From the IMG/VR virus record IMGVR_UViG_2529293140_000002: a stretch of DNA of 36,706 nucleotides; one strand, 5' to 3'. The stretch is from a virus (lineage: Duplodnaviria > Heunggongvirae > Uroviricota > Caudoviricetes). The position numbers and the translations under genes are program-made. Position 1 is the stretch's first letter. Every line of letters begins with the position of its first letter. The notes beneath the pieces were generated by a model. That model saw only the letters and a list, made by a program, of their open reading frames with translations. It had not been told where the DNA came from and did no database searches. Below are positions 3,488 through 34,086 of the stretch, piece by piece.

Positions 3488-3721
3488 ATGCGTAATATTG
3501 AAACCCTCTCGACCAAAACCGGACCGGATGACGCAGGGCTTAATATTTTACTGACAGAGGCTCGTCTGGAAGAACGCCGGGCAAGGGCTGAAGCAATGGC
3601 AGCTCGCCTTGATAGCTTGGCGTGTCATATCACATCCCGCCAGCTAACCCACGTCGAAGCGGCAGAACTGCTTCGTGTGACTGCTGAAGCAATCCAGAAC
3701 GAAGCGCAGGAGATCCACTAA
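3488..3721 (+). CDS. Early-operon protein, hypothetical
   Basis: ORF 3482-3721; ATG at 3488 preceded by AGGAGA; stop overlaps the next start (TAATG). Confidence 0.5.
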   Translation: MRNIETLSTKTGPDDAGLNILLTEARLEERRARAEAMAARLDSLACHITSRQLTHVEAAELLRVTAEAIQNEAQEIH

Positions 3722-3948
3722 TGGCTGATGCAATGGATCTCGTACAGCAGCGCGTTGAAGAAGAACGCCAACGCCATATCCGTGCTGCCCGTGCCAAAAC
3801 GCCGGGCGTGTCCCGCGTGCTTTGCATTGAGTGTGAAGCGCCAATTCCGCCAGCACGCCGCCGTGCCATTCCGGGTGTGCAGCTTTGCATTACCTGTCAG
3901 GAAATCGCAGAGCTGAAAGGCAAACATTACAACGGAGGTGCTGTATGA
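3721..3948 (+). CDS. TraR/DksA-family C4 zinc-finger protein
   Basis: 75-aa ORF with CxxC...CxxC spacing (CIECEAPIPPARRRAIPGVQLCITCQ) typical of phage and plasmid TraR/DksA-like zinc fingers. Confidence 0.7.
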   Translation: MADAMDLVQQRVEEERQRHIRAARAKTPGVSRVLCIECEAPIPPARRRAIPGVQLCITCQEIAELKGKHYNGGAV

Positions 3949-4802
3949 GCACCATCCTGAAATGGGCGGGAAATAAAACTGCCATAATGTCCGAACTGAA
4001 AAAACATCTTCCTGCTGGCCCGCGACTGGTTGAACCTTTCGCGGGTTCCTGTGCTGTGATGATGGAGACGGATTATCCCAGCTATCTGGTTGCGGATATT
4101 AATCCTGATTTAATCAACCTCTATAAAAAGGTTGCCGCTGATTGTGAATCGTTTATATCTCGCGCCAGAGTTTTATTTGAGATCGCAAACAGGGAGGTGG
4201 CTTATTACAACATAAGGCAGGAGTTTAATTACTCAACTGAAATTACTGATTTCATGAAAGCGGTATATTTCCTGTATCTCAATCGTCACGGTTACCGTGG
4301 TTTATGTCGCTATAACAAGAGCGGGCATTTCAACATTCCCTACGGTAATTATAAAAATCCGTATTTCCCTGAAAAAGAAATTCGCGCATTTGCAGAAAAG
4401 GCCCAGCGAGCAACGTTTATCTGCGCCAGCTTTGATGAAACGCTGGCGATGTTGAAGGCGGGGGATGTGGTGTATTGCGATCCGCCGTATGACGGTACGT
4501 TTTCCGGCTATCACACTGACGGCTTCACTGAAGATGACCAGTATCACCTGGCATCTGTTCTTGAACATCGGTCATCAGAAGGACATCCGGTCATTGTTTC
4601 TAACAGTGACACATCCCTGATCCGTTCGCTGTATCGCAATTTTACTCACCACTACATCAAGGCAAAACGCAGCATCGGTGTGGCAGCTGGCGAGGGTAAA
4701 TCAGCAACAGAAATCATTGCTGTTTCCGGGCCGCGCTGCTGGGTGGGATTTGATTATTCGCGTGGCGTGGATAGTTCTGCCGTGTACGGAGTACGTGCAT
4801 GA
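3945..4802 (+). CDS. dam: DNA adenine methyltransferase (Dam family, N6-adenine MTase)
   Basis: ATG at 3945 with GGAGGT upstream; N-terminal SAM-binding region (LKWAGNK...[10 protein letters not shown]) and the DPPY catalytic motif (VYCDPPYDG); stop overlaps the gene A start (ATGA). Confidence 0.85.
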
Positions 4803-7213
4803 GTCATGCCGATATGAACAACTGCTGCGGCTTTAACGAAGCTGCCGCATCGTTCTCATGGAACAGCTCGAAAAAGGCCATTAACCCTTATCTGGACCCG
4901 GTGGAAGTTGCGCCGGTTTCTACGCTTTCAAACCTGATCACTCTGTACGCTGCCGATAACGAGCAGGAACAGCTGCGCCGTGAGGCGCTGAGTGATCAGG
5001 TCTGGGAGCGTTATTTCTTTAATGAATCCCGTGATCCTGTCCAGCGCGAAATGGAACAGGATAAGCTCATTAGTCGGGCAAAGCTGGCGCATGAGCAGCA
5101 GCGTTTTAATCCGGATATGGTCATTCTGGCGGACGTCAACGCCCAGCCTTCCCATATCAGCAAGCCGCTGATGCAACGTATTGAATACTTCAGCAGCCTG
5201 GGCAGGCCAAAGGCTTATTCCCGCTATTTACGTGAGACGATTAAGCCATGTCTGGAACGACTGGAGCATGTACGCGACAGTCAGCTATCTGCATCTTTTC
5301 GCTTTATGGCAAGCCATGAAGGGCTGGACGGCCTGCTGATCCTGCCTGAAATGAGTCAGGATCAGGTGAAACGCCTGTCCACCCTGGTAGCTGCGCATAT
5401 GAGTATGTGCCTTGATGCCGCTTGTGGCGATTTGTATGCCACCGATGACGTTAAGCCAGAAGAAATCCGCAATACATGGGAAAGGGTGGCAGCGGAAACC
5501 CTGCGTCTGGATGTCATCCCGCCTGCGTTTGAGCAACTCCGTCGGAAAAGAAACCGCCGTAAACCCGTGCCCTATGAACTCATTCCGGGTTCGCTGGCGC
5601 GTATGTTGTGCGCCGACTGGTGGTATCGGAAATTATGGAAGATGCGTTGCGAATGGCGGGAAGAGCAGTTGCGTGCTGTCTGCCTTGTCAGCAAAAAAGC
5701 ATCTCCCTATGTCAGCTATGAAGCCGTGTTGCATAAACGTGAGCAGCGCCGTAAGTCGCTGGAGTTTTTCCGTTCTCATGAACTGGTGAACGAAGACGGC
5801 GACACGCTAGACATGGAGGATGTGGTAAACGCCAGCAGCAGCAACCCTGCGCATCGCCGCAATGAGATGATGGCCTGTGTTAAAGGTCTGGAGCTTATCG
5901 CGGAAATGCGCGGTGACTGCGCCGTTTTCTACACCATCACCTGTCCGTCACGTTTCCATTCCACGCTAAATAACGGCAGGCCCAACCCGACCTGGACAAA
6001 TGCGACGGTAAGACAAAGCAGCGATTATCTGGTCGGTATGTTTGCTGCATTTCGTAAGGCGATGCACAAAGCCGGGTTGCGCTGGTATGGCGTGCGGGTG
6101 GCTGAGCCGCATCACGACGGCACAGTTCACTGGCACCTGTTGTGTTTCATGCGCAAAAAAGACCGCCGCGCCATTACAGCATTGTTGCGTAAGTTTGCTA
6201 TCCGTGAAGACCGCGAGGAGCTGGGCAATAACACGGGGCCGCGCTTTAAGTCTGAGCTGATTAACCCGCGCAAAGGAACGCCGACAAGCTACATAGCGAA
6301 ATACATCAGTAAGAACATTGACGGGCGTGGTCTGACTGGCGAGATCAGCAAGGAAACGGGTAAATCTCTGCGTGATAACGCTGAATACGTGAATGCCTGG
6401 GCGTCTTTGCATCGTGTTCAGCAATTCCGCTTCTTTGGCATTCCGGGGCGTCAGGCTTACCGTGAACTGCGATTGCTGGCTGGTCAGGCGGCAAGGCAAA
6501 AGGGGGACAAAAAAGCAGGTGCGCCGGTACTGGATAACCCGCGCCTTGATGCCATCCTGGCTGCTGCTGATGCTGGTTGTTTTGCCACCTACATCATGAA
6601 GCAGGGCGGCGTACTGGTTCCCCGTAAATATCACCTCATCAGAACCGCTTATGAAATCAACGAAGAGCCGACCGCCTATGGCGATCACGGCATTCGTATT
6701 TATGGCATCTGGTCACCCATTGCAGAGGGCAAGATCTGCACTCATGCAGTGAAGTGGAAAATGGTTCGTAAAGCCGTTGACGTTCAGGAGGCGGCAGCCG
6801 ACCAGGGCGCTTGCGCCCCTTGGACTCGTGGCAATAACTGTCCCCTTGCTGAAAATTTGAACCAACAGGAGAAAGATAAATCAGCTGATGGGGACACCAG
6901 AACGGACATTACCCGCATGGATGACAAGGAGTTGCACGATTACCTGCACAGTATGAGCAAAAAAGAGCGCCGGGAACTGGCTGCAAGGTTACGCCTGGTG
7001 AAACCGAAACGGCGTAAAGACTACAAACAGCGAATTACAGACCATCAGCGACTGCAGCTCGTCTATGAGCTGAAGTCCAGAGGATTTGATGGTAACGAGA
7101 AAGAGGTCGATTTACTCCTTCGCGGCGGCAGTATTCCGTCAGGAGCAGGCCTGCGTATCTTCTATCGGAACCAGCGTTTGCAGGAAGATGATAAGTGGCG
7201 GAACCTGTATTAA
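4799..7213 (+). CDS. A: Replication initiation protein A (P2 gpA-like rolling-circle endonuclease)
   Basis: 804-aa ORF; conserved blocks recognisable from P2 gpA ([45 protein letters not shown]...AYRELR). Confidence 0.9.
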
Positions 7214-7305
7214 TTACGCGGGTTAACAATTCGTGCTCTTAATAATACCAGGCATATCAGGCTGATGAACGTAAAAAAACGTTTTACATCAGTAATATTA
7301 TTATA

Positions 7306-7325
7306 TACTGTAAATATAAACAGTA
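7306..7325 (+). promoter_or_regulatory. LexA operator (SOS box) TACTGTAAATATAAACAGTA
   Basis: Perfect CTGT-N8-ACAG palindrome with AT-rich spacer matching the E. coli LexA box consensus; about 40 bp upstream of the 7367 ATG, which has an AGGAGG Shine-Dalgarno. Confidence 0.7.
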
Positions 7326-7366
7326 GTTATCTATACAGTATTGTTTGCGGTGTCATAGGAGGAAAG

Positions 7367-7555
7367 ATGCAGGACTATTTTTTGGAGTCTTTGAAGCTCC
7401 AGCGCATTGATTTTTTTCTTAAGCTTGTAGCGGCTAGTGAGTGTAGTGATGAAGAGAAGGGGCTGGCTCTGCAGTGGGTTTCTGAACTGACAGATGAACT
7501 CATGGCAAAAATCAGAACCCACGAATACAACCGCTCAATGGATGTCATCAGCTGA
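7367..7555 (+). CDS. Small SOS-regulated protein, possible Tum-like antirepressor N-terminal module
   Basis: ORF 7265-7555; internal ATG at 7367 lies just downstream of the LexA box with a strong Shine-Dalgarno; 62 aa; followed 10 bp later by the DinI-like gene. Confidence 0.5.
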   Translation: MQDYFLESLKLQRIDFFLKLVAASECSDEEKGLALQWVSELTDELMAKIRTHEYNRSMDVIS

Positions 7556-7565
7556 GGTGACTTTT

Positions 7566-7799
7566 ATGCGCATTGAAATAATGATCGATAAAGAGCAGAA
7601 GATTAGCCAGTCTACACTGGACGCCCTTGAATCCGAGCTTTACCGCAATCTGCGCCCTCTGTATCCCAAAACGGTAATCCGTATCCGTAAAGGTAGCTCT
7701 AACGGTGTGGAACTGACCGGACTGCAACCGGACGAAGAAAGAAAACAAGTGATGAAAATTATGCAGAAGGTGTGGGAAGACGACAGCTGGCTGCATTAA
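7566..7799 (+). CDS. DinI-family protein (Tum C-terminal-like)
   Basis: ATG at 7566 preceded by GAGGTGA; 77 aa beginning MRIEIMIDK with acidic C-terminus (WEDDSWL), matching the DinI fold pattern as I recall it (MRIEVTIAK...WESADDW). Confidence 0.7.
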   Translation: MRIEIMIDKEQKISQSTLDALESELYRNLRPLYPKTVIRIRKGSSNGVELTGLQPDEERKQVMKIMQKVWEDDSWLH

Positions 7800-8243
7800 G
7801 AAATGTTGCCCCCAGGAGGATTCATTCTAATGGGGGCTAGTTTGGGCAACGAGTGAAACGAGGCGTAAGGTGGGTAATCATTTTGATAAGTGATCGCCCA
7901 CTTTGTGCCAAAAGCGGACATCGCAGATATGACAATATGTTAGTCAACCGCGATTAGATCAGTCAGTTGGAGATGGGGGGAAGTTACAAAAACTTGTCGT
8001 CCGCCATCTCCGACTACGGGTATTCTTAACTGTACATGCTCTTTCAATCGATGATTTTTGAGTAAGTGACTAACCTATTGTTTTGATAGTAATTAAACGT
8101 ATAAACGTGCGGAGTTAATTTGAAAGTTATGTGTCTATGTTTGACAAGCAAAATTTTAAAGATTGGTTTTATCCACAGGTAATTTATGCTATTAATAGCC
8201 TCAAGCCCTGTAATTATTTTTATTTAAATGGATAAATTTGAAA

Positions 8244-10364
8244 ATGAGTACATATCATAATGATCAGCCAATACTAGGTGGTCAAAATGACCCCGATTTA
8301 TTAAACAGGCTCGATTTTGCAAATCACTTGGCAAATATTCTACTATTAAATCACAATGATGATTGCCTTACTGTATCTATAGAGGCAGAGTGGGGATATG
8401 GTAAAACGTCAGTGATAAATCTTATAAAAGGTGCTTTGAATGAAAAGGAGTTCTTACCAATAATAATAGAATATAATCCATGGCTGGCCGGTCAACCTGA
8501 ATCCTTGATTCAGGATTTTTTATTACAGTTCTCTTCACAACTAAATATTAAAGACAATTCAAAAGCTGCTTTGGAAGCTTCAAAAGAATTAATTGCATAC
8601 TCCAATCTCTTCAGTGTAGCAAAACTTATTCCAGGGACAGAACCTTGGGCATCTATCATAGAAAAAGTCCTCTCTAATTTTGGGAGTGCTACTAAAAAGA
8701 TTGCTGAATTAAAAAAACTGGATCTTTTAGGTAGAAAAAAACAAGTAGAGAAGGCAATAAAAAAAATAAAAAATCCTATTGTGGTAATAATTGATGATAT
8801 TGATCGATTGACTCCTGCAGAAACTTTTCAAGTTTTACGATTGGTTAAAGCAGTTGCAGATTTCTCAGGAACTTCTTTTTTACTTGCATTTGATCCTAAT
8901 TATTTGATTTCTGTGCTTGATAAAAATAATATCGTCAATTCTTCGGAGTATCTTAATAAAATTGTTCAACTTCGAGTCCCACTTCCTGTAATCTCAGAAA
9001 GGGGTATGAATGAACTTGCAAATGCAGAACTGGAAAAGATAGCTAATAAATCTTTAACTGACAGATTCGAAAGTGATCAAGAAAGACTAAGCTGGATTTA
9101 TCATAATTATTTTAAAAAACTAATTAAGAATCCGAGAGAGTTAAAAAGATTTTTTAACCATTTGAGATTCGTTTTAGAGCAAATTGAAGGGCAGGTATGT
9201 TTTTCTGATCTCTTTGCTTTATCTCTGGTCGCCACTAAATCGAGTTTGGTATACGAGCATATTAAAAGCACACCAGAGGCATATATAGGGAAGAGATTCA
9301 CTAATGATGGCCTTTTGATGGATAAACCTCAAGATATTGTGGATAGATTTAGTGATGAGCGAAATAAGAAACTGAGTAATTTTTCTGATCAAGAGCGTTC
9401 AGTGATGCAGGAACTCTTAGGAGATATTTTCCCACTTCTACAGTCAAGCGGGTATTCTCATTATGGGGTTTCTGATCCCGATACAGCAGGAAGGGTTTCT
9501 GCACCACAAAGGCTTCATATTGCGTTTCATTATAAAACTCCAGCAGGGTATATTTCTGATCATGATATTATCAGTTTCATTAATGGAGATGTCAAAAGAA
9601 ACGAATTTCTAAGAGATGTGCTCTCGCAAAATGCAGAAGAAAGATTTTTTGAAATGATGAATAATTATTCGAGTTATTGTAAGGATAATAGTTTTGAAAT
9701 ATTAACGTGTATTTATGATACTTTTCTGTTTTCTCAAGAATTGAAATCCTCATTGGAAAGAAACTATGGTTTTTTGACAAAAGATCTTTATAGAAGGATG
9801 AATTGGCTCACTAATAAGGTAATATCTGAAAGTGATGATAAATATGGGTTAATAAAGGGGGTTGTAGGTAGGCATGAGAATGCGCCACTTGGTGCAGACG
9901 TATTATGCCAAGCTCGTAAACAGATTCAAAATGGATGGAATGACAAAATATGGGTTAGTATTGAAGAATTGGCTGAACTTGAAGGTATCTTTCAACAGGT
10001 GGCTATTAAAGTTTTAAGTGATAAAATATATTTTGATTATCATCTTGAATCTCATATATTTTTCGAATTAAAGAGAGTTTCATCTCAATTTACATCAGAG
10101 TTTATTGCTTCTGTATTATCAAGTGATGGCCTGATTAGGATGTGTGAGATTATTGGTGAAACAGGTAGTGATTCAACAAATGGCCCTTATTTTAAGTTTG
10201 ATGAAATTTACTTCGGGGAAATACTTGATGTGAATGAACTTCGAAATAAAGCGAAAAATTTAGATTTTTCAATTTATCCCACACGCATTCAAGCTGTACT
10301 TAAGAGTATTCTGGATGGACAAAAATATTATTTGAGAGATGCAACTGTTGGTGAAGATTGGTAA
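8244..10364 (+). CDS. KAP-family P-loop NTPase
   Basis: About 706 aa from the ATG at 8244 (the track ORF starts at a TTG at 8238); Walker A WGYGKTS at 8391-8411 and Walker B hhhhDDIDR (IVVIIDDIDRL) at about 8781-8807, the characteristic KAP NTPase signatures; strongly AT-rich compared with the phage backbone. Confidence 0.8.
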   Translation: MSTYHNDQPILGGQNDPDLLNRLDFANHLANILLLNHNDDCLTVSIEAEWGYGKTSVINLIKGALNEKEFLPIIIEYNPWLAGQPESLIQDFLLQFSSQLNIKDNSKAALEASKELIAYSNLFSVAKLIPGTEPWASIIEKVLSNFGSATKKIAELKKLDLLGRKKQVEKAIKKIKNPIVVIIDDIDRLTPAETFQVLRLVKAVADFSGTSFLLAFDPNYLISVLDKNNIVNSSEYLNKIVQLRVPLPVISERGMNELANAELEKIANKSLTDRFESDQERLSWIYHNYFKKLIKNPRELKRFFNHLRFVLEQIEGQVCFSDLFALSLVATKSSLVYEHIKSTPEAYIGKRFTNDGLLMDKPQDIVDRFSDERNKKLSNFSDQERSVMQELLGDIFPLLQSSGYSHYGVSDPDTAGRVSAPQRLHIAFHYKTPAGYISDHDIISFINGDVKRNEFLRDVLSQNAEERFFEMMNNYSSYCKDNSFEILTCIYDTFLFSQELKSSLERNYGFLTKDLYRRMNWLTNKVISESDDKYGLIKGVVGRHENAPLGADVLCQARKQIQNGWNDKIWVSIEELAELEGIFQQVAIKVLSDKIYFDYHLESHIFFELKRVSSQFTSEFIASVLSSDGLIRMCEIIGETGSDSTNGPYFKFDEIYFGEILDVNELRNKAKNLDFSIYPTRIQAVLKSILDGQKYYLRDATVGEDW

Positions 10365-10956
10365 TACTTTTATAGGCATGCTTAGAGATGATGGAGTATC
10401 TTTTTCTCCCTTTTTGAGGAAGTGATTTCCAACTGGGCATGGATGCCACATCAAATGGACAGTTGTTGTCACCTGTCAGTTAGCTGCTATTTGTTTATAG
10501 CAGCTGAAAGCCCACTACATAGTTACACCAGAAGGAGTAACAATGTAGTGGATAGCTAAATTTGACCACCTTAACAGATATGTTAATTTCCCCCCTCGCT
10601 CACAGCGGACTTTCATCTTTGTAAACCCTTATAATTCGCTTTTCAGCGGTCATTCAGATACGGATTTACGCTTTCCTTGGCAGTGCATGACTATGACGCA
10701 TGAGATCGCATGATCGTTTGAGGATCGTTTTTGCTGAGGCCAGCCAGAACTGGCGTGCTTTTGCTTATGTCATGCAGGTGCATGAAAACCACTACATAAA
10801 GTGGGCAGGCGTGGCGGGGATACGAGCGCGCGCTAACTCTTGGCTTTGTTTCATAATCAAAAATGTGATCATTGAGATTATTCTTAATTTTATGTTTGTC
10901 TATGAAATATCATTTCGCTTAACATTGTTTGAGTTAGGACTACATGAGAATAAAGA

Positions 10957-11532
10957 ATGCTTTTACCCGTAAGTGTTACATCGTGTGGCTTGTATCACCC
11001 CTACTGGCATTTGGGAGAGCGCAACCCTCATAGCGATGAACTATCAAGGCAGATGATGGATTTTAAGGATGAAAATAATCGTAATCATCAAAGGGCTATT
11101 AACCGTTTTTCTCGATTAGCTATAGATAAGGTTGGGCGGTTAGTAATCAGAGGTGGCGGTGGGCGTTTTGTTGAGTCTCCTTTTTCGATAGCAGTCGTCC
11201 CATCTCACACTGAAGGCAGAATTTCACCGGCTTTGATTGAGGTCGCCGAGCGAATCGTAAATGTTCACCGTCGGGGCATTGTTGATTGCTGTTTGGAAAG
11301 AACACGCACTGTTCCTAGCGCACATCGTGAAGGAGGAGATCGCTCAATTACTGGTCACATGTCTAGTATCAGAGTTAGGGGTGGTAACCTCATGGGGCGA
11401 AATGTGTTACTACTAGATGATGTTAAAACAACAGGCGGTAGTTTGTCTGCGTGTTTTTATTTACTGGAGTCTGCAGGAGCTGGAGTTATAATGCCATTAG
11501 CTCTGCTAGAAACTGCAAACTATGAGGAGTAG
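10957..11532 (+). CDS. Phosphoribosyltransferase-domain protein (ComF-like PRTase); candidate toxin or effector
   Basis: 191-aa ORF; type I PRTase PRPP-binding signature VLLLDDVKTTGGSL at 11404-11442 plus upstream ComF-like blocks (SIAVVPSH, LERTRTVPSAHRE); N-terminus uncertain because a possibly frameshifted ORF 10700-10972 lies upstream. Confidence 0.7.
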   Translation: MLLPVSVTSCGLYHPYWHLGERNPHSDELSRQMMDFKDENNRNHQRAINRFSRLAIDKVGRLVIRGGGGRFVESPFSIAVVPSHTEGRISPALIEVAERIVNVHRRGIVDCCLERTRTVPSAHREGGDRSITGHMSSIRVRGGNLMGRNVLLLDDVKTTGGSLSACFYLLESAGAGVIMPLALLETANYEE

Positions 11533-12496
11533 CAAAGTGCACTCAGAAGAATTAAAAAATACACTTGGATTAGCTATTCAAATCGGGAAGCTAGCATCTG
11601 ATCAAAGTGTATTGAAATTCTTTGAGCTTATTGATTTTGATGTTATTCGTGATATACGCGACTTAACTGAGATGGTTAATAGCCACGGGTTTCTAAAAGA
11701 TAAAATATCTGAGACTGATTTTCTAATAGCGAATGCTGAATTGGAGAACCACCATGTTAATGGTGTGGAGCTAATACCATATGGGTCTGAATTCTATCCT
11801 CTTAGTTTAGCGTTTACTCCTAATCCACCATCAATTCTCTACATAAAAGGGGATAAAAGTATACTAAAAGAATTGCCGGGTGTCGCAATTGTAGGATCCC
11901 GTGATACTTCCCCTGCAGGGGAAGAAATAACGAGGCGAATCACTAATCAGATAGTGTCTGCTGGGTATATTGTTGTAAGTGGGTTAGCAATAGGCACTGA
12001 TGCGAATGCTCATAAGGCAACGTTACAAGCAAAAGGAAAAACCATTGCTGTCTTGGCGCATGGTCTTGAGGAGGCTAAGCCGAAGCAAAACAGTCGACTT
12101 GCTCAAGAGATTCTGGATAAAGGTGGTGCATGGATTTCTGAGTATCCTATGGGGCGACCGGCCCAGAAACAATCATTTGTACAAAGAAATCGGATACAAG
12201 TTGGATTATCTGCAGGTTCAATTTTAATCGAGGCTGCGTTAAATAGCGGAACGATAACTCAAGCTGAGTTTGCAAATAAGGCTAAAAGACCAGTGTTTGC
12301 GGTTGTACCTCACCTACCTAATAATCCGCTTAATCTTAATTGTGAGGGAACAGTTGATTTAGTTAAGAGCAACATGGCTAGAGCGTTAAAAACAAAACGG
12401 GATTATGATGATGTGATTATGATCATAAATGAGTCTCGGGAGTATTTGTTAGAGCTAAAATGGCCAGGGAAACAGAGTACATTAGACTTGATTTAA
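11522..12496 (+). CDS. DprA/Smf-like Rossmann-fold protein; candidate antitoxin or partner of the PRTase
   Basis: 324-aa ORF overlapping the PRTase stop (alternative GTG at 11537 after GAGGAG); DprA signature VAIVGSR...VVSGLAIGTDANAHKA...IAVLAHGL...SEYP...RNRI...LIEAALNSG...RPVFAV. Confidence 0.75.
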   Translation: MRSSKVHSEELKNTLGLAIQIGKLASDQSVLKFFELIDFDVIRDIRDLTEMVNSHGFLKDKISETDFLIANAELENHHVNGVELIPYGSEFYPLSLAFTPNPPSILYIKGDKSILKELPGVAIVGSRDTSPAGEEITRRITNQIVSAGYIVVSGLAIGTDANAHKATLQAKGKTIAVLAHGLEEAKPKQNSRLAQEILDKGGAWISEYPMGRPAQKQSFVQRNRIQVGLSAGSILIEAALNSGTITQAEFANKAKRPVFAVVPHLPNNPLNLNCEGTVDLVKSNMARALKTKRDYDDVIMIINESREYLLELKWPGKQSTLDLI

Positions 12497-12520
12497 AGCG
12501 CCTCTTTTAGAGGCACTTTG

Positions 12521-13546
12521 CTAAATTTGATATCTCTCGAATTTTATAATTTCTTCACCGCTCCAATGATTAAATTCTTTCATTCTTTTTTGTAATGGTA
12601 ATAATTCATTTTTCACAAATACCTTACTAGCTTTTTCTACATCCCCAAATCCCCCAACATTATTAGGCATTATCCCCATCATCTGTGGCGGAACGCGATG
12701 TGCTGCCATCATGTCATCCCGGCTCACGTTCTTGATATTTAGAAACTCATCCTTCGCCGCAACTTCTGACAAAGGGATGATCTGAAGGCCGTCCTTTTTG
12801 CCGTTAGGCGAGTACATAAACAGGTTGCGGAAGTTACCCGGACCTTTGGCACTTTTCATTGCATTGCGGAGGTTGTTCACGTCCTCCTGGTTCTGCGCAG
12901 CATCGGTCATGTACATGATGAAGCCTGCATGACTACCGTTAATGTAATACTTGCGGCGGAACAGCGTGGCGGACTCATTGAGCAGGGCGGACGGAATGGC
13001 AGAAAGATAGCTGGGCAGGCCGTAGATCTCCTGGTTAATGTCCGGTTCCATCAGATGAAAAATGCTGCCTTTCGTGAACTGATACGGCTGGGTTGTCATA
13101 CCGTATTGCACAAACCAGTAGGTATCCAGGTCTAACCCGCGTCGGGTGTATTTTGCCAGAGCAGGCTCAAGGGCGATAACTTCACCGAAGCGGTTCGTGC
13201 GTTTCTCCAGGTAGGCGTTACCAAATACCAGATAGTCCTGCACAAAACGTGAAAAAGCCTGCTGGCTGAGCAGCGGGTGAGGGATGTAGGTACTGGTCAG
13301 AATGTTGCATTTTACTGCAATTGGTGAGCTGTGATGCACGGCAGCGCGGAAGGTTCGTGCCAGTCCGTCAAAGCTGACGGGCGGCTCATACCAGCGGTCC
13401 ATCTGTACGCATTCCACATAGTCCAGCAGTTCACGGCGGTCCAGAACAGGAACGGGATCGCCAAAGCTGAATGCTTCGGCTGAAGTCTGGCTTTTATGCT
13501 TGAGCTGATTCGTCGCCGCAGCGCGGTTTTTCTTACTCTTTCCCAT
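12521..13546 (-). CDS. Q: Portal protein (P2 gpQ-like)
   Basis: ORF 12521-13549 minus; ATG at 13546-13544 overlapping the upstream terminase stop; size about 341 aa; conserved position and length for P2-family portal. Confidence 0.85.
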   Translation of the reverse strand: MGKSKKNRAAATNQLKHKSQTSAEAFSFGDPVPVLDRRELLDYVECVQMDRWYEPPVSFDGLARTFRAAVHHSSPIAVKCNILTSTYIPHPLLSQQAFSRFVQDYLVFGNAYLEKRTNRFGEVIALEPALAKYTRRGLDLDTYWFVQYGMTTQPYQFTKGSIFHLMEPDINQEIYGLPSYLSAIPSALLNESATLFRRKYYINGSHAGFIMYMTDAAQNQEDVNNLRNAMKSAKGPGNFRNLFMYSPNGKKDGLQIIPLSEVAAKDEFLNIKNVSRDDMMAAHRVPPQMMGIMPNNVGGFGDVEKASKVFVKNELLPLQKRMKEFNHWSGEEIIKFERYQI

Positions 13547-33927: not shown

Positions 33928-33974
33928 CAACAAAAAACCCATCAACCTTGAACCGAAATGGCGGGGTTGATGGG
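33928..33974 (-). terminator. Candidate rho-independent terminator of ybjL
   Basis: 10-bp stem (CCCATCAACC / GGTTGATGGG, 33938-33947 and 33965-33974) followed on the minus strand by TTTTTTGTTG; lies about 115 bp downstream of the ybjL stop. Confidence 0.45.
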
Positions 33975-34086
33975 CTCCACAAAATGGGGACATCAAAGAA
34001 AAGCAGTGGCACTAATTAAGACTGATGCCCTGCGGAAAAGTTCTGCGGTTGTGCAAAAAAATTTCATTTTCAGGGCAACTTCAGTT

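Follow-up and report, generated by a model that had tools for sequence, protein, structure and literature searches.

A short phosphoribosyltransferase and a DprA-like protein form a candidate minimal ShosTA-type pair in the gpA-gpQ hotspot of a P2-like Escherichia coli prophage

The window analysed here, that is the whole 36,706-nt stretch of DNA held as IMG/VR virus record IMGVR_UViG_2529293140_000002, is a P2-like prophage of Escherichia coli, as judged from annotated matching records, and carries two overlapping genes on the same strand that encode a short phosphoribosyltransferase (PRTase) and a DprA-like protein (Table 1). Adjacent and co-oriented as they are, the two genes answer to the description of ShosTA, a toxin-antitoxin (TA) defence pair made up of a PRTase and a DprA-like protein (Millman et al. 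2022, bioRxiv 10.1101/2022.05.11.491447; Rousset et al. 2022, PMC9122126). The prophage genes run in the order integrase, CI, CII, Dam methylase, replication endonuclease gpA, a DinI-like gene, a KAP-family NTPase and the pair, after which the portal gene Q and the terminase gene P follow on the opposite strand. The segment with the pair is 100% identical to the chromosome of E. coli BE311 and 97.5% identical to that of enteropathogenic E. coli (EPEC) E2348/69; of 5426 complete E. coli genomes, 33 have the whole pair and 1250 the flanking backbone. An earlier note on this DNA, made from the sequence alone, had called both genes and their overlap, and the open reading frames (ORFs) bear this out.

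Table 1. Coordinates in the window of the two genes of the pair and of the features discussed with them
Feature	Position	Strand	Basis or remark
Short ShosT-like PRTase, putative toxin/effector, 191 aa, single PRTase domain	10957-11532	+	ORF list
ShosA-like DprA-family protein, putative antitoxin/sensor, 324 aa	11522-12496	+	ORF list, Pfam, PADLOC
11-nt gene overlap	11522-11532	+	DprA-like ORF starts within the last codons of the PRTase ORF, AAC-TAT-GAG-GAG-TAG
cos-like 19-mer GGCGTGGCGGGGATACGAG, followed by CGCGCGC	10808-10826	+	Left edge of the slot that holds the pair
Terminator-like hairpin and T-run	10739-10764	+	Consensus scan; just 5' of the cos-like site
Tentative promoter TTGTCT, 18 nt, TAACAT	10894-10923	+	Spotted by eye in an alignment
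KAP-family P-loop NTPase, 708 aa	8238-10364	+	Pfam KAP_NTPase E=2.1e-46; PADLOC PifA 6.7e-65 over the N-terminal 449 aa
RybB small RNA gene	33929-34007	-	Rfam RF00110, 105 bits; right end of the prophage

The PRTase ORF contains VLLLDDVKTTGGSL and the DprA-like ORF contains VAIVGSR...GLAIGTDANAH. With the DprA-like gene starting inside the last PRTase codons, translational coupling of the pair is suggested; the same TATGAGGAG-stop junction is seen in E2348/69, in the Salmonella phage SopEPhi and in the Hafnia and Pectobacterium loci, the Shewanella locus being the exception (five of six loci, including the window). Both genes are under purifying selection: compared to the E2348/69 allele, the PRTase gene has a ratio of nonsynonymous to synonymous substitution rates (dN/dS) of 0.10, and the DprA-like gene has 6.8% synonymous differences with zero amino-acid changes. 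In the distant comparisons the synonymous sites are saturated, the proportion of nonsynonymous differences (pN) is 0.28-0.42, and both proteins diverge in parallel.

Homologues of the PRTase are full-length proteins of 189-193 aa with a conserved start, 40-89% identical to the window protein and spread across the Gammaproteobacteria (Citrobacter, Enterobacter, Dickeya, Yersinia, Hafnia, Pectobacterium, Kluyvera, and Shewanella). A profile of the family run against 1.84 billion cluster representatives retrieves 1046 of them at E<=1e-10, mostly stand-alone proteins of 175-200 aa. The family-invariant residues (P82-S83-H84, R115, G127-D128-R129-S130, and H134) are all present in the window protein, of which the loop that is typical of phosphoribosyl pyrophosphate (PRPP) binding reads LLLDDVKTTGGS and includes D154/D155; the family pattern here is L151..D155-V-x-T-x-G-x-S, with D155 invariant and D154 found in at least 90% of the family. 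AlphaFold2 models both proteins with high scores (pLDDT, the predicted local distance difference test, is 89.9 for the PRTase and 92.6 for the DprA-like protein).

The earlier note took the first protein for a ComF-like PRTase with a PRPP-binding motif. The loop is there and the fold agrees; the profile matches do not carry the name, the Pfam Pribosyltran match being weak (E=1.2e-3, under the curated cut-off) and the score with NCBIfam ComF (TIGR00201) being 25.5 bits against a cut-off of 233.55. Searched against the PDB by sequence, either singly or as a 20-sequence profile, the PRTase gives generic PRPP-loop matches, with ShosT at E=0.011, no better than APRT/OPRT, and hhalign aligns the PRPP loop alone both with canonical ShosT and with E. 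coli YhgH. Since sequence is unable to place the protein, its placement was taken from the predicted structure. The three top Foldseek matches of the model in the PDB are those of ShosT (8zvc, 8zvd, 8zvb), with Helicobacter pylori ComF fourth, and from this ranking the fold belongs in the ComF/ShosT corner of the PRTase superfamily, neither of the two being placed closer. In PADLOC the protein matches the ShosT model PDLC03962 (3.6e-14, positions 62-211 of 237); it has no match to the model of the characterised subtype, PDLC03012, which canonical ShosT matches at 4e-276. The D154/D155 dyad aligns with D331/D332 of ShosT. The N-terminal HAD-like pyrophosphatase (PPase) domain was not found in the 191-aa protein, which has no HAD match in Pfam or NCBIfam and is modelled by AlphaFold2 as a single domain; the two-domain build of ShosT is a feature of the characterised representatives and not a part of the ShosTA family description.

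The second protein, which the note described as a DprA/Smf-like Rossmann protein, is confirmed as such by Pfam (DNA_processg_A, E=1.4e-60) and by the Rossmann core of its AlphaFold2 model, so that, of the two profile searches that the note proposed, with DNA_processg_A and Pribosyltran, the former gives a clear match and the latter does not. The model has four N-terminal helices forming a SAM-like domain (ca. 4-79), the Rossmann core (ca. 82-289), an extra C-terminal helix (292-310), and a low-confidence tail (311-324). ShosA is built in the same way: its SAM-like N-terminal domain is followed by the DprA Rossmann domain and one more C-terminal helix, and it ends in a tail that is disordered and destabilising (PMC11961720, PMC12961424). 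The best Foldseek match is indeed ShosA (8zva, E=5.3e-20, 307 columns, including the N-terminal helical domain and the C-terminal helix), with Rhodopseudomonas palustris (3maj) and Streptococcus pneumoniae DprA close behind. The PADLOC ShosA model PDLC03961 is matched by the window protein at 2.8e-70 and by canonical ShosA at 2e-85. In ShosA, neutralisation needs R139 and R234, which bind single-stranded DNA (ssDNA), and K200, which contacts RecA and has the strongest effect (PMC12961424); their equivalents in the window protein are R127, R222, and K188, and these are kept in five of five partner homologues. In the comparison with characterised ShosT and ShosA that the note called for, the DD dyad and the three key residues have their counterparts, while the identity to ShosA amounts to 28% and the sequence likeness to ShosT stays within the PRPP loop.

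The pair is strictly linked and is carried on phages and satellites in accessory slots. The order PRTase and then DprA is kept in 11 of 11 further contexts inspected, which comprise P2-like elements (the E2348/69, Pectobacterium, and Dickeya prophages and phage SopEPhi), P4-like satellites recognised by their alpha-type primase and Ogr/Delta genes (Hafnia, Yersinia), Mu-like prophages (Shewanella algae, Aeromonas), and Vibrio islands (two loci in V. parahaemolyticus and one in V. splendidus). In SopEPhi (AY319521), the SopE-converting phage, orf14 and orf15 (locus 3489-5037) encode proteins ca. 50% and 58% identical to those of the window, both annotated as 'unknown'; the 11-nt overlap is identical, and the genes are likewise placed after a cos-like site. 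Next to a distant cyanobacterial homologue of the PRTase (P0040, 294 aa), Pfam finds no DprA-like gene, and the pairing rule is therefore limited to the closer gammaproteobacterial clade.

The locus of the pair is the gpA-gpQ hotspot of P2-like phages, which Rousset et al. 2022 (PMC9122126) reported as a hotspot of defence genes and from which the 'DprA + PRTase' system of E. coli APEC O1, able to block T7 and lambda, was cloned in the same work. Within it the pair lies between the cos-like site and the portal gene Q. The cos-like 19-mer resembles P2 cosL, annotated at positions 1-19 as GGCGAGGCGGGGAAAGCAC, followed by TGCGCGC and located 167 nt from the end of Q; it has a single match in the window against 0 expected in shuffled sequence, and we infer from this likeness that it works as cos. 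The motif also stands 5' of the PRTase gene in six other P2-like or P4-like loci, at 122-135 nt in E2348/69, SopEPhi, Pectobacterium, and Dickeya (P2-like), at 455 nt in Yersinia (P4-like), and at ca. 1085 nt in Hafnia (P4-like), where an FRG-domain gene lies in between. As the motif precedes the PRTase gene here and in these other loci, we assign the cassette to the cos-Q gap. The A-cos gap on the other side holds the old/tin genes in P2, canonical ShosTA in phage 10W, and a PifA-like KAP NTPase in the window; cos thus divides the hotspot into a left and a right slot, and neither is empty in the window. A common cos flank would explain transfer of the cassette between P2-like phages and P4-like satellites. 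The G+C content of 0.33-0.43 over 8-13 kb, the cargo of the hotspot, compared to ca. 0.55 in the structural genes, is consistent with a recent acquisition of foreign cassettes.

Taken together, and by analogy with the characterised systems, we read the pair, with a probability of about 0.75, as a prophage-carried two-gene cassette of the toxin-antitoxin type that would act against phages and is of a minimal ShosTA kind. The ShosTA systems studied biochemically are those of E. coli APEC O1 (Pu 2025, PMC11961720; clone pFR105 in Rousset 2022) and KTE181 (Yang 2026, PMC12961424). The window shares with them the two-gene composition of PRTase and DprA-like protein, the P2 gpA-gpQ hotspot, the DD dyad of the PRPP loop, and the domain layout of ShosA with the equivalents of R139, R234, and K200; in Foldseek, ShosT and ShosA rank first, with ComF and DprA next in rank. 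There are also differences. Characterised ShosT is a protein of 424 aa, with a HAD-like PPase at 1-164 and the PRTase at 165-424 (PMC11961720, PMC12961424), whereas the window toxin has 191 aa and lacks the PPase domain; and the window pair sits in the cos-Q gap whereas the canonical one sits in the A-cos (old/tin) gap. At the level of the system type the ShosTA reading is supported, the pair being a candidate ShosTA variant that is minimal, has the reverse gene order, diverges in sequence, and is distinct from the characterised subtype.

Several points weigh against the ShosTA reading. In sequence the PRTase resembles canonical ShosT at the PRPP loop alone (44 residues by BLASTP, E=6e-5; 47 columns with hhalign). 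The toxin gene precedes the antitoxin gene in the window and overlaps it by 11 nt, while in characterised ShosTA the antitoxin comes before the toxin, as in the canonical system recovered from phage 10W, where the gene of the 424-aa PRTase follows that of the DprA-like protein. The positions of ShosA R206 (a RecA contact), R261, and L181/F182 (at the dimer interface) are not conserved in the DprA-like protein. The housekeeping Smf of E. coli K-12 matches the PADLOC ShosA model at 3.5e-58, and YhgH/ComF matches the ShosT model at 8e-7, so that the names of hidden Markov models (HMMs) alone fail to separate a ShosTA pair from ComF and DprA, and single-gene matches to PDLC03961 or PDLC03962 are not specific for ShosTA. 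A consensus promoter scan found no promoter on the + strand upstream of the PRTase gene, and a literature search found no experiment on the short-PRTase subtype: toxicity of the toxin alone and its neutralisation without direct binding (type IV TA) are known only for the APEC O1 and KTE181 systems, and protection from phages (T7, lambda, and others) by abortive infection has been shown for the subtype with the 424-aa ShosT only. The ShosTA architecture, which the earlier note had put forward, holds for the type of pair and the hotspot and agrees with the PADLOC and Foldseek matches; it has to be qualified for the one-domain toxin, the reversed order, a sequence resemblance that stops at the PRPP loop, and PADLOC models that K-12 Smf and YhgH match as well.

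Among the other explanations, the one that we take most seriously, while still considering it unlikely, is that the pair is an addiction module which stabilises the prophage or satellite by post-segregational killing and plays no real part against phages. The TA-like layout with overlapping genes would suit such a module, as would a PRTase predicted by analogy to be toxic and the presence of the pair on mobile elements in all contexts inspected; moreover, ShosTA was first recognised as a TA pair, for which later literature cites Kimelman 2012. Yet phage defence is known from the related systems of APEC O1 and KTE181, other defence genes are found in the slots that the cassette occupies, a PifA-like gene being its neighbour in the window, and integrated prophages have less need of segregational stabilisation; defence and addiction are, besides, not mutually exclusive. 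Somewhat less likely again is a module of benefit to the phage itself, in which a ComF-like and a DprA-like protein would serve the recombination or replication of the phage, or act against a host defence, and would kill no cell; in natural transformation, ComF and DprA are the two proteins that handle ssDNA in the cytoplasm. The PRTase, far below the ComF cut-off, has none of the CxxC pairs of ComF, and the pair is accessory, being present in far fewer genomes than the backbone around it and found at moron positions in unrelated phage types.

That the PRTase ORF is non-functional and that the DprA-like protein acts alone we regard as very improbable, even if the databases might seem to say so: RefSeq/PGAP leaves the ORF uncalled in 15 of the 15 best E. 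coli records, its Pfam match is under threshold, and Table S5A of Rousset 2022 enters WP_001324531 as a lone DNA_processg_A gene with no partner (PMC9122126). Against this, the ORF is intact, keeps its length and start down to 40% identity, has the low dN/dS given above, a confident AlphaFold2 model, and every family-invariant residue; the DprA-like gene follows it in all contexts inspected, and the identical 191-aa protein is annotated in GenBank/IMG on at least 1000 contigs, as 'hypothetical protein' or as 'predicted amidophosphoribosyltransferase'. The least probable reading of all is that the two genes are simply the competence genes comF and dprA, found in a prophage by chance. The domains are those of ComF and DprA, and PGAP names the second gene 'DNA-processing protein DprA'; but E. 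coli has its own yhgH and smf, at separate chromosomal loci, and the NCBIfam equivalog cut-offs are missed not only for ComF but also for DprA (TIGR00732, 186.4 against 191.15; the E. coli-type NF008007 of 374 positions, 168.6 against 495). Further, the zinc finger is required for the function of ComFC (PMC9005727), and neither the sequence nor the alignment of the PRTase has any CxxC zinc-finger pair, C10 alone being conserved in the N-terminus. The same differences set the pair apart from the ComFC and DprA of natural transformation (H. pylori ComFC 7p0h; DprA 3uqz, 3maj, 4ljr). The pair is separated from the competence genes by the NCBIfam scores, the missing CxxC, the strict linkage, and its carriage by phages and satellites, and the view of the earlier note that neither protein has an obvious role in natural competence in this context is upheld.

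If the pair is indeed of the ShosTA kind, its mode of action can be pictured by analogy. The 191-aa PRTase would bind PRPP via its DD-containing loop and, when unchecked, would perturb nucleotide (purine) metabolism and damage DNA; the co-translated DprA-like protein would bind ssDNA and RecA and thus keep the damage repaired. An infecting phage that stops host expression, or whose replication produces ssDNA intermediates in excess, may cause the labile or titrated DprA-like protein to fail, upon which the PRTase would kill or arrest the cell before phage release (abortive infection), to the protection of the lysogen population and of the resident prophage. In ShosT, toxicity needs PRPP binding and D331/D332, the mutation of which abolishes it, while the PPase mutant R56A lowers it only marginally (PMC11961720, PMC12961424), and it is this mutant that makes a PRTase-only toxin plausible. 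Such a toxin would test whether the PRTase domain alone suffices for ShosT-type killing, as the published mutant hints, and material for the test is readily available, since EPEC E2348/69 and Salmonella SopEPhi carry the pair.

Two further systems invite comparison. PsyrTA/RqlHI likewise joins a DprA-like antitoxin to a toxin with a C-terminal PRTase domain, and in PADLOC the DprA-like protein of the window matches PsyrA at 1e-30 and the PRTase matches PsyrT at 4.9e-6 (positions 577-686 of the 689-position profile); PsyrT, however, covers ca. 690 positions and has a large N-terminal region described as RecQ-like (PMC4670107), which the 191-aa window toxin lacks. System 98 in Table S5B of Rousset 2022 (SLOG(LDcluster4)/DNA_processg_A + PRTase_3) has a stand-alone PRTase of ca. 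190 aa and a partner of the DprA/SLOG superfamily in the same P2 hotspot, but that partner is a SLOG protein of ca. 185 aa encoded upstream of the PRTase, and the PRTases are alike at the PRPP loop only. Among the relatives of the short PRTase (E ca. 1e-27) there are fusions of HAD and PRTase, with an N-terminal HAD domain in P0156 and a C-terminal one in P0170, as well as larger fusions of 392-708 aa, and these fit an effector domain that is modular, canonical ShosT being one of its fusions. A broader scheme remains speculative and in our opinion rather doubtful: the short PRTase clade, mostly stand-alone proteins of ca. 175-200 aa, would be the widespread core effector, ShosT (HAD/PPase) and PsyrT (helicase) would be derived fusions, and the cassette would spread among P2-like and P4-like elements via the common cos flank.

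The pair adds an ordinary variant to a type of system that is already known, at a hotspot that had already been described, and leaves the overall picture of ShosTA-type defence unchanged. Its practical value lies in the annotation blind spot that it exposes and in a PRTase-only putative toxin for mechanistic work. Because RefSeq leaves the toxin gene unannotated in E. coli, protein-based defence finders and hotspot catalogues see a lone 'DprA', and with the toxin ORF uncalled the system is under-counted. The gap extends beyond E. coli: the V. parahaemolyticus homologue of the PRTase is uncalled in the NCBI record and called in the Logan assembly.

Turning to the flank upstream of the pair, the terminator-like hairpin is kept as GCCCGCCAGAACTGGCGGGCTTTTGC in related phages, the window copy having two stem mismatches, and the probable role of the hairpin is to shield the pair from the KAP NTPase gene upstream and from early transcription. 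The tentative promoter, which may be that of the pair, has counterparts at the same position in SopEPhi (TTGTCA...TACTAT) and Pectobacterium (TTGTCA...TAGTGT). A 155-nt block at 10682-10838, which includes the hairpin and the cos-like 19-mer, is shared by 1250 of the 5426 E. coli genomes and by 58 phage records; in Yersinia phage MLG42 a 48-aa hypothetical protein is annotated on the matching block. A 90-aa ORF at 10700-10972 was considered as a gene and rejected as probably spurious because it runs across both the hairpin and the cos-like site.

The KAP NTPase is probably an independent PifA-like abortive-infection gene on the A-cos side of the hotspot. It has weaker PADLOC matches to QatA and PDC-S20, and the E2348/69 locus is without it and has a 111-aa gene on the minus strand in its place. 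A repeat search of 6800-13000 gave nothing meaningful. Rfam finds no RNA family at the locus of the pair, its sole match in the window being RybB. The 14-mer AACAAAAAACCCAT at the 3' end of rybB recurs in BE311 between rcdA and the integrase gene, and this recurrence suggests the 3' end of rybB as the integration site of the prophage.

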